Assembly: GCF_013167455.1 (NCBI RefSeq)
Contig: NZ_CP038328.1
Direction: 5' to 3' (one strand)
Length of the DNA: 64,000 nt
Origin: Escherichia coli O157:H7
Lineage (GTDB): Bacteria; Pseudomonadota; Gammaproteobacteria; Enterobacterales; Enterobacteriaceae
Numbering within the stretch: position 1 is the stretch's first letter; each line of letters starts with the position of its first letter. Shown here piece after piece: positions 4,241 through 44,471 of the stretch. The position numbers were made by a program, and so were the translations under genes. The notes below the pieces were generated by a model. It was not told the DNA's origin. It worked only from the letters and a program-made list of their open reading frames with translations, and did not search any database.

Positions 4241-6414
<2,174 letters not shown>

Positions 6415-13350: not shown

Positions 13351-13714
<364 letters not shown>

Positions 13715-16010: not shown

Positions 16011-16580
16011 ATGAAACGACTTATTGTGGGCATCAGCGGTGCCAGCGGCGCGATTTATGGTGTGCGCTTATTACAGGTTCTGCGCGATGTCACAGATATC
16101 GAAACGCATCTGGTAATGAGCCAGGCGGCGCGCCAGACCTTATCCCTCGAAACGGATTTTTCCCTGCGCGAAGTGCAGGCATTAGCTGATGTCACGCATG
16201 ATGCGCGCGATATTGCCGCCAGCATCTCTTCCGGTTCTTTCCAGACACTGGGGATGGTGATTTTACCCTGTTCAATCAAAACCCTGTCCGGCATTGTCCA
16301 TAGCTATACTGATGGCTTACTGACCCGTGCGGCAGATGTGGTGCTGAAAGAGCGTCGCCCACTGGTGCTCTGCGTGCGTGAAACACCATTGCACTTAGGC
16401 CATCTGCGTTTAATGACGCAGGCAGCAGAAATCGGTGCGGTGATTATGCCTCCCGTTCCGGCGTTTTATCATCGCCCGCAATCCCTTGATGATGTGATAA
16501 ATCAGACGGTTAATCGTGTTCTTGACCAGTTTGCGATAACCCTTCCTGAAGATCTCTTTGCCCGCTGGCAGGGCGCATAA
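16011..16580 (+). CDS. ubiX: Flavin prenyltransferase UbiX
   Basis: 189 aa; flavoprotein fold with N-terminal GISGASGAIYG. Confidence 0.95.
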   Translation: MKRLIVGISGASGAIYGVRLLQVLRDVTDIETHLVMSQAARQTLSLETDFSLREVQALADVTHDARDIAASISSGSFQTLGMVILPCSIKTLSGIVHSYTDGLLTRAADVVLKERRPLVLCVRETPLHLGHLRLMTQAAEIGAVIMPPVPAFYHRPQSLDDVINQTVNRVLDQFAITLPEDLFARWQGA

Positions 16581-16588
16581 CTCCGCTG

Positions 16589-16613
16589 TTGCCCTGTTTC
16601 AGGGCAATTTTGC
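16589..16613 (+). terminator. Intrinsic terminator after ubiX
   Basis: ttgccctg-tttc-agggcaa followed by ttttg. Confidence 0.7.
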
Positions 16614-16761
16614 AACCGCGATCAAATCCTCGACATTTTGTTTCTGCCATTCAATCGAAACGCTGCGATTCAACCGCTATACCTGCTATCTTCAACTTTA
16701 GGACAATAATGCAACGTCTTATTAACATATTTAACGTTGAATGTTACTGTTGTCGTCAAGA

Positions 16762-16777
16762 TGGCATAAGACCTGCA
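16762..16777 (+). promoter_or_regulatory. Sigma-54 (-24/-12) promoter upstream of argT
   Basis: tGGcataagacctGCat fits the GG-N10-GC spacing; about 70 bp upstream of the argT ATG. Confidence 0.7.
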
Positions 16778-16845
16778 TGAACAAGCCTGCAAACACACAA
16801 CACAATACACAACATAAAAAAGCCATTTTCACTTGAGGGTTATGT

Positions 16846-17628
16846 ATGAAGAAGTCGATTCTCGCTCTGTCTTTGTTAGTCGGTATTTCCGCAGCGGCTT
16901 CCAGCTATGCGGCATTGCCGGAGACGGTACGTATCGGAACCGATACCACCTATGCACCGTTCTCGTCGAAAGATGCCAAAGGTGACTTTGTCGGCTTTGA
17001 TATCGATCTCGGTAACGAGATGTGCAAACGGATGCAGGTGAAATGTACCTGGGTTGCCAGTGACTTTGACGCGCTGATCCCCTCACTGAAAGCGAAAAAA
17101 ATCGACGCCATTATTTCGTCGCTTTCCATTACCGATAAACGTCAGCAGGAGATTGCCTTCTCCGACAAGCTGTACGCCGCAGATTCCCGTCTGATTGCCG
17201 CCAAAGGTTCGCCGATTCAGCCAACGCTGGACTCACTGAAAGGTAAACATGTTGGTGTGCTGCAGGGATCAACCCAGGAAGCTTACGCTAACGAGACCTG
17301 GCGTAGCAAAGGTGTGGATGTGGTGGCCTATGCCAACCAGGATTTGGTCTATTCCGATCTGGCTGCAGGACGTCTGGATGCTGCACTGCAGGATGAAGTT
17401 GCTGCCAGCGAAGGATTCCTCAAGCAACCTGCTGGTAAAGATTTCGCCTTTGCTGGCTCATCAGTAAAAGACAAAAAATACTTCGGTGATGGCACCGGTG
17501 TAGGGCTACGTAAAGATGATGCTGAACTGACGGCTGCCTTCAATAAGGCGCTTGGCGAGCTGCGTCAGGACGGCACCTACGACAAGATGGCGAAAAAGTA
17601 TTTTGACTTTAATGTCTACGGTGACTGA
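16846..17628 (+). CDS. argT: Lysine/arginine/ornithine-binding periplasmic protein
   Basis: 260 aa with signal peptide; close paralog of the adjacent hisJ. Confidence 0.95.
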
Positions 17629-17848
17629 TACGTCGCAGGGAAGCTGTACCTGATGGAATGATCATCATGGTGCACGCCAGGTTTGTTGCACTATCGTGGT
17701 GCATTGAAATGCATACTTAAGCATTTTTAATGAAAAATAATACGTCTAACGGGGCGGGATATTTTGCCTTGATGGTCAATTTTATGGCACGATAAGTGTA
17801 ACAAACCTGTAAATATTCCCTATAAAAAGACTGTCAGTTGAGGACATT

Positions 17849-18631
17849 ATGAAAAAACTGGTGCTATCGCTCTCTCTGGTTCTGGCCTTCTCCAGCGCAA
17901 CTGCGGCATTTGCTGCGATTCCGCAAAACATCCGCATCGGTACCGACCCGACCTATGCGCCATTTGAATCAAAAAATTCACAAGGCGAACTGGTTGGCTT
18001 CGATATCGATCTGGCAAAGGAATTATGCAAACGCATCAATACGCAATGTACGTTTGTCGAAAATCCGCTGGATGCGTTAATCCCGTCCTTAAAAGCGAAG
18101 AAGATTGACGCCATCATGTCATCGCTTTCCATTACGGAAAAACGTCAGCAAGAAATAGCCTTCACCGACAAACTGTACGCTGCCGATTCTCGTCTGGTGG
18201 TGGCGAAAAATTCTGACATTCAGCCGACAGTCGAGTCGCTGAAAGGCAAACGGGTAGGCGTATTGCAGGGCACTACCCAGGAGACGTTCGGTAATGAACA
18301 TTGGGCACCAAAAGGCATTGAAATCGTCTCGTATCAGGGGCAGGACAACATTTATTCTGACCTGACTGCCGGACGTATTGATGCCGCGTTCCAGGATGAG
18401 GTCGCTGCCAGCGAAGGTTTCCTCAAACAACCTGTCGGTAAAGATTACAAATTCGGTGGCCCGTCTGTTAAAGATGAAAAACTGTTTGGCGTAGGGACCG
18501 GCATGGGCCTGCGTAAAGAAGATAACGAACTGCGCGAGGCACTGAACAAAGCCTTTGCCGAAATGCGCGCTGACGGTACTTACGAGAAATTAGCGAAAAA
18601 GTACTTCGATTTTGATGTTTATGGTGGTTAA
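17849..18631 (+). CDS. hisJ: Histidine-binding periplasmic protein
   Basis: 260 aa, signal peptide [22 protein letters not shown]; followed by hisQMP. Confidence 0.95.
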
Positions 18632-44419: not shown

Positions 44420-44471
44420 CCGAATTTCGATTAACGCTCAGTCTCTGACTGAGAAAACTGGAAGCATGCTA

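Follow-up and report, generated by a model that had tools for sequence, protein, structure and literature searches.

At the promoter glnAp2, strong NtrC boxes lie 100-140 bp upstream. The argT promoter (argTp) is a long-established member of the Ntr regulon in E. coli and Salmonella. In Salmonella, argT is one of four operons whose dependence on sigma-54 is described as 'experimentally shown', the activator being NtrC; its site TGGCATAAGACCTGCATG gave a ChIP-chip signal, and argT expression was 3.5-fold higher in the wild type than in a ΔrpoN strain when a constitutive activator was present (Samuels 2013, PMC3844500). In E. coli K-12, sigma-54 ChIP-seq placed site OS22 (ATGGCATAAGACCTGCA; FAT 12) upstream of argT, a promoter carried in EcoCyc as of 2015 with the status 'P', that is, predicted and not confirmed (Bonocora 2015, PMC4591121). 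The argT spacer was also among the gSELEX targets of the RpoN holoenzyme, both with and without NtrC, at 55-61% (Shimada 2021, PMC8743547); text searches did not find argT in that paper's table of targets of NtrC alone. A 2019 paper describes the argT promoter as sigma-54-type and NtrC-activated, and the hisJQMP promoter as sigma-70-type and ArgR-regulated. Deletion of glnK, whose product is an antagonist of NtrC, raised argTp-lacZ activity and argT mRNA 2.4- to 3.2-fold (PMC4958250). Moreover, argTp has been adopted as an engineering part for nitrogen-responsive expression, a 199-bp fragment being strong on amino-acid nitrogen (PMC7045595); the primers in the supplement of that study define this fragment as positions 16590-16788 of the DNA considered here.

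We analysed a 64-kb window, the whole stretch of 64,000 nucleotides to which all positions refer, around a putative sigma-54 promoter motif. The 601-nt region around the motif matched E. coli O157:H7 chromosomes with 100% identity, and of 5426 complete E. coli genomes 5425 contained it. In an identical record annotated by RefSeq, the genes are arranged in the order accD-folC-dedD-cvpA-purF-ubiX-argT-hisJ-hisQ-hisM-hisP-rpnB. In the list of open reading frames ubiX ends at 16580 and hisJ occupies 17849-18631, while the argT CDS, coding for a lysine/arginine/ornithine-binding periplasmic protein, spans 16846-17628 on the plus strand. The gene downstream of the motif is therefore argT, as the first-pass annotation had assumed, and it is named ArgT in identical O157:H7 records. 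Between K-12 and the window 3 of 300 nt differ in the argT region and none inside the motif; the differences include CA (O157) versus AG (K-12) at 16783-84, downstream of the -12 element and ahead of the start. The centre published for the OS22 motif, 2425890, coincides exactly with position 16769, which is the midpoint of the 17-mer, and the K-12 site agrees with that of the window in the whole 17-mer, in strand and in distance to argT, with no functional difference. Concordantly, the Salmonella Typhimurium argTr, a classical NtrC/sigma-54 promoter, shares the 18-mer, which is located equivalently in front of the orthologue. Published experiments have thus recorded sigma-54 occupancy of this site and, in Salmonella, dependence of argT on rpoN. 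The nitrogen-regulated, NtrC-type expression read from the motif in the first-pass annotation agrees with the OS22 ChIP-seq, the gSELEX, the rpoN dependence in Salmonella and the 2019 paper; in view of the published work on argT and sigma-54 that interpretation was correct and also already known. The motif is the known argTp/argTr sigma-54 promoter, which makes it textbook knowledge and not a discovery.

Direct reading of the plus strand gave tggcataagacctgca at 16762-16777. In this element (TGGCATAAGACCTGCA) the GG at 16763-64 and the GC at 16775-76 are separated by 10 nt, the spacing of the sigma-54 consensus TGGCAC-N5-TTGCW, so that the invariant dinucleotides and the spacing claimed for it were both as described. 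Its position was also given correctly, apart from a trivial off-by-one, as the 17 letters quoted at first reach 16778. The promoter core, as delimited by weight matrix, identity to OS22 and conservation, is aTGGCATAAGACCTGCA at 16761-16777 on the plus strand. The motif matches 13 of 16 consensus positions, with TGGCA and TGCA intact, and departs from the consensus at three (TGGCAta, cTGCA). It is intergenic and on the sense strand, and its 3' end lies 68 nt upstream of the argT ATG, with a predicted leader of 58 nt; published sigma-54 sites lie from 1 to about 250 nt from the start codon (Bonocora 2015, PMC4591121).

Searches with an unweighted consensus did not single out the site. TGGCACG-N4-TTGCA with up to 3 mismatches had 59 matches in the window versus 85 expected, and TGGCA-N7-TGCA had one exact match versus 1.12 expected. 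As these searches performed no better than on shuffled sequence, they cannot alone validate the argT site and were rejected for this use. We scored the window with a weight matrix trained on 41 intergenic, sense-strand sigma-54 ChIP-seq motifs (Bonocora 2015, PMC4591121), from which argT had been left out. In this leave-one-out scan for RpoN promoters, proposed as a check in the first-pass annotation, the argT motif reached 14.96 bits and was the best of approximately 128,000 positions in the window; among the intergenic ChIP-seq sites scored in the same way it ranked 21st of 42, that is, in mid-range. The number of matches expected per 64 kb at this score is 0.5 when bases are treated as independent and 1.2 under a first-order Markov model, and these rates correspond to about 0.001-0.002 for the 265-bp ubiX-argT spacer when only its sense strand is counted. 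By itself the motif is thus not beyond chance in 64 kb, whereas in its context, considering rank, strand, position in the spacer and conservation, it clearly is.

Conservation was assessed at argT loci from 80 Enterobacteriaceae species of more than 20 genera, including Escherichia, Citrobacter, Salmonella, Enterobacter, Klebsiella, Raoultella, Kosakonia, Pluralibacter, Franconibacter and others, which gave an alignment of 81 distinct sequences. TGGCA-N7-TGC was present in all 80 species loci, 50-89 nt upstream of the argT ATG, and all eight bases of TGGCA and TGC were invariant in the 81 sequences. Invariant columns make up only 16% of the intergenic alignment, whose mean identity is 70%; within the sigma-54 spacer identity ranges from 70 to 100% and in the flanks from 11 to 85%. 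The bases that directly precede TGG (A/G/C) and TGC (C/A/G) vary among loci, as does the spacer (AAGAC, AAAAC, AAAAA, GGTAA and others). The site was also scored as conserved in many species in the supplement of Bonocora 2015 (PMC4591121). These data bear on the possibility that the motif is a functionless chance match, to which the 0.5-1.2 equal-scoring matches expected per 64 kb and the lack of enrichment in simple consensus searches would lend some plausibility. Against it stand the specificity of position and strand, with only about 0.001-0.002 such matches expected in the spacer, the core that is invariant in 81 sequences despite a variable spacer, and direct sigma-54 occupancy in two species and in vitro. 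ChIP-seq and conservation effectively refute a chance match, and we consider the probability that the motif is one to be next to nil.

We are highly confident that argTp is the sigma-54 (RpoN)-dependent, NtrC-activated promoter of argT and that the bound holoenzyme also hinders a sigma-70 promoter. In the mechanism we propose, sigma-54 RNA polymerase binds the -24 GG and -12 GC elements and remains parked there in a closed complex that does not start by itself. When nitrogen is limiting, this complex is remodelled by the phosphorylated form of NtrC, an enhancer-binding protein driven by ATP. Transcription would then proceed from a start near 16788-89, cross a C/A-rich leader of 58 nt to reach argT, and continue by read-through into hisJQMP. 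As long as NtrC is inactive, the bound holoenzyme also hinders the weak sigma-70 promoter just upstream.

The start at 16788-16789 on the plus strand is predicted from motif geometry, 12-13 nt past the C of the -12 element, and would give a 5'-UTR of about 58 nt. This agrees with a published prediction that places the argT start 19 nt past the motif centre and 58 nt upstream of the gene (Bonocora 2015, PMC4591121); G16789 is an invariant column of the 81-sequence alignment. The leader contains the C/A-rich stretch caaacacacaacacaatacacaacat (16790-16815, plus strand), which is 80-99% conserved across genera and is of the type targeted by the R1 seed of the sRNA GcvB, making it a candidate target. 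Among the listed targets of GcvB R1 is argT, with verification in Salmonella and conservation in E. coli. Rfam yielded no RNA family at or near argT.

A standard scan of the plus strand for sigma-70 promoters found none. A relaxed scan, however, identified sigma-70-type hexamers with 8 of 12 matches at 16722-16750 on the plus strand, consisting of a -35 element TTAACA (16722-27), a 17-nt spacer and a -10 element TACTGT (16745-50). Transcription from these hexamers would start at about 16756-57, so that the sigma-54 motif would occupy approximately +5/+6 to +22 relative to it. In published RNA-seq data argT expression in the presence of rpoN was 23% of that without it, compared to a vector control; the sigma-54 motif was mapped to +6 to +22 of the argT sigma-70 promoter (Table S3), and sigma-54 lowered sigma-70 initiation in vitro (Schaefer 2015, PMC4551910). 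Repression of the sigma-70 promoter is hence an experimental result, and TTAACA and TACTGT are probably the hexamers to which it applies, judging from their agreement with the reported geometry. Taken together, the repression data and the matching hexamers indicate that the parked sigma-54 holoenzyme also acts as a brake on the weak upstream sigma-70 promoter. The -35 hexamer is situated inside a deeply conserved block, but the -10 region shows little conservation (identity of 10-70% in the 81 sequences).

The same observations could be taken to mean that the site mainly serves to park the sigma-54 holoenzyme and thereby repress the sigma-70 promoter, most argT transcription being sigma-70-dependent, possibly under ArgP/lysine control, and sigma-54 transcripts being minor. 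Control of argT by ArgP and lysine has reportedly been described. Besides the 23% expression level, the position of the motif at +6 to +22, the reduction of sigma-70 initiation in vitro (PMC4551910) and the correctly placed TTAACA-17-TACTGT, this reading would account for the very high activity of the cloned argTp fragment, unlike that of other NtrC promoters (PMC7045595); the activity of this fragment (16590-16788) could partly reflect the sigma-70 promoter. Nevertheless, argT is induced by nitrogen limitation in dependence on the Ntr system and rpoN, and the putative -10 element is poorly conserved compared to the invariant sigma-54 core. Furthermore, both roles can coexist, and the authors who described them call them complementary. 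We therefore judge a mainly repressive site to be very unlikely and retain repression as a secondary role of an NtrC-activated promoter.

The way in which NtrC reaches argTp in Escherichia is less straightforward. The first-pass annotation had pointed to possible NtrC enhancer sites 100-150 bp upstream, and such sites are absent. The best match to the NtrC box TGCACC-N5-GGTGCA was 7 of 12 within 150 bp upstream of argTp and 8 of 12 in the whole 265-bp ubiX-argT spacer, the latter at a hairpin behind ubiX; as the window has a match of at least 8 of 12 roughly every 350 bp, these values are at chance level. The palindrome concerned, TGCCCTGTTTCAGGGCA at 16590-16606, begins 10 nt past the ubiX stop and forms a 9-bp hairpin followed by UUUU (fold energy -15.1 kcal/mol, z = -3.5). 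Its stem covaries between genera (TTGCCCTG/CAGGGCAA, CGCCCTG/CAGGGCG, CGCCCC/GGGGCG). With a GC-rich hairpin and T-run after the ubiX stop and a covarying stem, an NtrC site was rejected as its primary reading. RNA folding indicates that the hairpin with its short T-run (16588-16611, plus strand) is likely the ubiX terminator, which would mark the upstream boundary of the argT control region.

Other genera are better equipped on this side. In the distal segment from -235 to -150, NtrC-like sequences with at least 10 of 12 matches were present in 35 of 80 loci, compared to 1 of 240 control windows taken from within argT; none of the 80 loci had such a sequence in the proximal 150 bp. In many genera one or two of these palindromes precede the -24 element by about 172-203 nt, as in K. 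pneumoniae (CGCACTATAGTGGTGCA), Pluralibacter (CGCACTAAGATAGTGCATCTTTTTGGTGCA), Pseudocitrobacter (TGCACCAATCTGGTGCT) and E. cloacae (TGCACCTGCAGGGTGCA). Of the element at -203, Salmonella and most Citrobacter have only an eroded half-site. Escherichia is without the 24 nt in which this element lies, and its ubiX stop is at -181 and not at -205; Salmonella subsp. arizonae and diarizonae have 24 extra bases after ubiX including a residual GCGTGCA half-site, which Escherichia lacks. Since part of the cross-genus NtrC-like signal, the -172 sites, falls on the ubiX hairpin, this signal has to be regarded with care. Across genera the elements follow the order ubiX stop, NtrC-like palindromes (in many genera), hairpin with T-run, three conserved blocks (A, B and C) and the -24/-12 core.

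The only strong NtrC box of the window is located beyond argT, in the argT-hisJ spacer. There, consensus scan, conservation and overlap with a ChIP peak define a cluster of NtrC boxes at 17658-17713 (no strand assigned), in which TGCACTATCGTGGTGCA at 17687-17703 matches 11 of 12 positions, the best score in the whole window, next to a conserved GGTGCA half-site at 17669-74. In this spacer the best NtrC box scores 10-12 of 12 in 73 of 80 loci, and its outer bases are conserved. The 11/12 box is situated about 0.9 kb downstream of argTp, within looping range. A 24-fold NtrC ChIP-seq peak at 2424941-2425021 (Brown 2014, PMC4066584) maps to 17638-17718, over the cluster. The peak reported at argT reached only 5.4-fold and was annotated as 'miscalled… added from visual interpretation' (Brown 2014, PMC4066584); it maps to 16718-16798 and is centred on the promoter itself. 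For argT and hisJQMP alike, the sole prior evidence for NtrC cited in the table of that study is gene-expression analysis (Brown 2014, PMC4066584). The assignment of NtrC to argT stands on expression data and on weak ChIP data.

These findings raise the possibility that argTp is NtrC-dependent and has no enhancer of its own in Escherichia, with NtrC acting either from the argT-hisJ cluster by looping over about 0.9 kb or from solution at high NtrC levels. NtrC sites are known to work over kilobase distances and from either side of a promoter. Such an arrangement would fit the lack of an NtrC box in the 265 bp upstream, the position of the single 11/12 box of the window at 17687-17703, the 24-fold ChIP signal on the hisJ side versus a 5-fold signal at argT that is centred on the promoter, and the loss in Escherichia of a segment that in other genera carries 10-12/12 boxes at about -172 to -203 (35/80 loci vs 1/240). 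However, an argT fragment placed at the lac locus still responded to GlnK, with a 2.4-fold effect compared to 3.2-fold for the native mRNA (PMC4958250), and the plasmid-borne fragment 16590-16788 was highly active although it lacks the downstream site (PMC7045595). In addition, the deep conservation of the upstream blocks A-C implies that something functional binds there, and the -172 signal overlaps the ubiX hairpin, where TGC…GCA palindromes can mimic the NtrC consensus. Weighing both sides, we consider an argTp without an enhancer of its own unlikely; as to the downstream cluster in particular, the arrangement in Escherichia suggests, with a probability that we likewise set low, that argTp could be activated from the enhancer on the hisJ side, at a distance of about 0.9 kb.

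The hisJ side also contains a degenerate sigma-54-like element, aTGGCACGATAAGTGTA at 17784-17800 on the plus strand, 48 nt upstream of the hisJ ATG. Its score of 12.8 bits was the fifth-best of the window; the -24 element is perfect, and the -12 element has GT instead of GC. At the orthologous position most Citrobacter and Franconibacter have a canonical site (TGGCACGATAACTGCA, 18.5 bits), and near-canonical variants of 17.8-18.1 bits occur in Superficieibacter, Pseudocitrobacter and Pluralibacter; the Salmonella element TGGCACGATAGCCGCA has kept the GC. In E. coli neither the high-stringency list of sigma-54 ChIP-seq sites nor the searched supplements contained the hisJ element (Bonocora 2015, PMC4591121). 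The hisJ (dhuA) region resembles that of argT in preceding a tandem paralogous gene, in belonging to the Ntr regulon and in having a -24 element, TGGCAC, about equally far from the ATG, and differs from it by the strong NtrC box cluster and, in Escherichia, by the defective -12 element. The separation of argTp from the hisJ promoter drawn in the first-pass annotation therefore applies only in part, since the hisJ side has the best NtrC box, the stronger NtrC ChIP signal and a sigma-54-like element with canonical counterparts in other genera. The comparison of boxes and -12 elements thus leaves Escherichia with a good promoter without a near enhancer at argT and a good enhancer with a damaged promoter at hisJ. 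One conceivable, if decidedly doubtful, history is that Escherichia rewired an ancestral pair of sigma-54 promoters by deletion of the argT-side boxes and mutation of the hisJ-side -12 GC, which would have left argTp to be fired by an enhancer downstream of argT.

Conserved sequence between the ubiX hairpin and the promoter core falls into the three blocks mentioned above, all on the plus strand. Block A (TTTGCAACCGCGATCAAATCCTCGACATTTTG, 16609-16640), detected by conservation profile and anchor search, has the consensus GCGATCA[A/T]ATCCTC[G/A]ACATTT, of which GATCA.ATCC is present in 81 of 81 sequences. Its matches to the NtrC and IHF consensus are at chance level only, and its invariant bases do not fall on positions required by IHF. 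Block B (CGCTGCGATTC...CCTGCTATCTT, 16661-16692), from the conservation profile, has invariant TG at 16684-85 and TATC at 16687-90, and its cross-genus form is CGCTGCGrTT…CCTGCTATCTT. Block C (TGCAACGTCTTATTAACATATTTAACG, 16710-16736), which emerged from the same profile, is A/T-rich, lies 26-52 nt upstream of the -24 element and includes the sigma-70 -35 hexamer; its cross-genus form is TGCAAC…TTATTAACATATTTAACG. At NtrC-activated promoters an IHF site or an intrinsic bend often separates enhancer and promoter, although it is not obligatory. The IHF consensus WATCAANNNNTTR gave only matches with 2 mismatches, and the position of block C would suit IHF or a bend. Block C may be a bend or a site for an accessory factor; any role of blocks A-C in sigma-70, ArgP or Lrp control is speculation.

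Blocks that are nearly invariant and match no NtrC consensus might alternatively be recognised by an enhancer-binding protein other than NtrC that drives the sigma-54 promoter, the more so as direct NtrC binding upstream of E. coli argT was backed by expression only before the weak ChIP peak. However, all sources name NtrC, and the promoter responds to GlnK, which acts via NtrB/NtrC. Moreover, we know of no E. coli enhancer-binding protein besides NtrC that is linked to basic amino-acid transport. As block C overlaps the sigma-70 -35 element, blocks A-C may serve the sigma-70 promoter instead. We hold activation by a different protein to be highly improbable and maintain NtrC as the activator of argTp.

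With argTp long established in the Ntr regulon of E. coli and Salmonella, this analysis adds little that is new; it does illustrate that a real sigma-54 promoter can be recognised by reading the sequence alone, without tools. There is a small gap in that published work names NtrC for this promoter, although in Escherichia the region upstream of it is without a recognisable box, the only strong one being found beyond argT and before hisJ. Locating the action of NtrC would clarify how argT and hisJQMP are coordinated under the control of nitrogen, arginine (ArgR) and the sRNA GcvB. Altogether, argTp resembles glnAp2 in its -24 GG/-12 GC architecture, in its control by nitrogen through NtrC and in the presence of a sigma-70 promoter close by. 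The difference lies in the enhancers: glnAp2 has strong upstream NtrC boxes, whereas Escherichia argTp has matches of at most 8 of 12 within 265 bp.

The highest-scoring NtrC box in the entire window (17687-17703, 11 of 12 matches to TGCACC-N5-GGTGCA) lies inside the argT-hisJ spacer, within a cluster of such boxes detected by consensus scan at 17658-17713. Approximately 98 bp downstream of this box, the same spacer contains a sigma-54-like element (TGGCACGATAAGTGTA, 17784-17800) in which GT replaces the GC of the -12 element. This hisJ-side element is canonical in Franconibacter and most Citrobacter, scoring 18.5 bits, and near-canonical in Pseudocitrobacter and others, while the Salmonella version retains the GC. 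This conservation pattern suggests an ancestral sigma-54 promoter of hisJ that has since decayed in Escherichia.

NtrC-like palindromes with 10 to 12 of 12 matches were also found directly after ubiX in many genera, about 172-203 nt upstream of the TGGCA of the argT sigma-54 promoter (argT loci L021, L028, L030, L034, L040, L045, L050, L054 and L060, among others), and are sometimes paired, 31 bp apart. Matches of at least 10/12 occurred at this position in 35 of the 80 loci, compared to 1 of 240 control windows located inside argT. The element is reduced to a half-site in Salmonella and most Citrobacter, and Escherichia entirely lacks the 24-nt segment that carries it. Some of these sites coincide with a hairpin followed by UUUU immediately past the ubiX stop codon (16588-16611; -15.1 kcal/mol, z = -3.5). 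Since its stem shows covariation between genera, this hairpin is probably the terminator of cvpA-purF-ubiX. In Enterobacter, the T-run is instead found on the 5' side of the hairpin (TTTTGCCCTG…CAGGGCAAAAC).

Three nearly invariant blocks, A, B and C, were identified upstream of the argT promoter (16609-16640, 16661-16692 and 16710-16736). The GATC within the GATCA.ATCC motif of block A is invariant in all 81 aligned sequences, and comparison of the blocks with the NtrC and IHF consensus sequences yielded no convincing match. Block C includes the putative -35 hexamer of an overlapping sigma-70 promoter reported in the literature. Over 300 nt around the argT promoter, the window differs from K-12 MG1655 only at position 16699 (T instead of C) and at 16783-16784 (CA instead of AG), the latter downstream of the -12 element and upstream of the predicted start.

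Elsewhere in the window, further weight-matrix matches to sigma-54 promoters scored 13.5-14.4 bits at 63437-63453 (+), 59109-59125 (-) and 6152-6168 (-). Since the matching K-12 interval holds no published high-stringency sigma-54 ChIP-seq site besides argT, these are probably chance matches, as expected from statistics. Rfam hits that exceeded the gathering score were the nuoG RNA motif at 44422-44464 and, in the dedD-cvpA interval, three naRNA4 (REP-type) elements in tandem (13405-13475, 13496-13566 and 13587-13657).

An A/T-rich, conserved stretch at 17709-17744 (AATGCATACTTAAGCATTTTTAATGAAAAATAATACG) resembles two ARG boxes separated by 3 bp and overlaps the NtrC box cluster at its 3' edge. 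These putative boxes agree with reports that ArgR controls hisJQMP. The argT leader carries a long, conserved C/A-rich run (caaacacacaacacaatacacaacat, 16790-16815), a composition that fits argT as a published target of the R1 seed of the sRNA GcvB.
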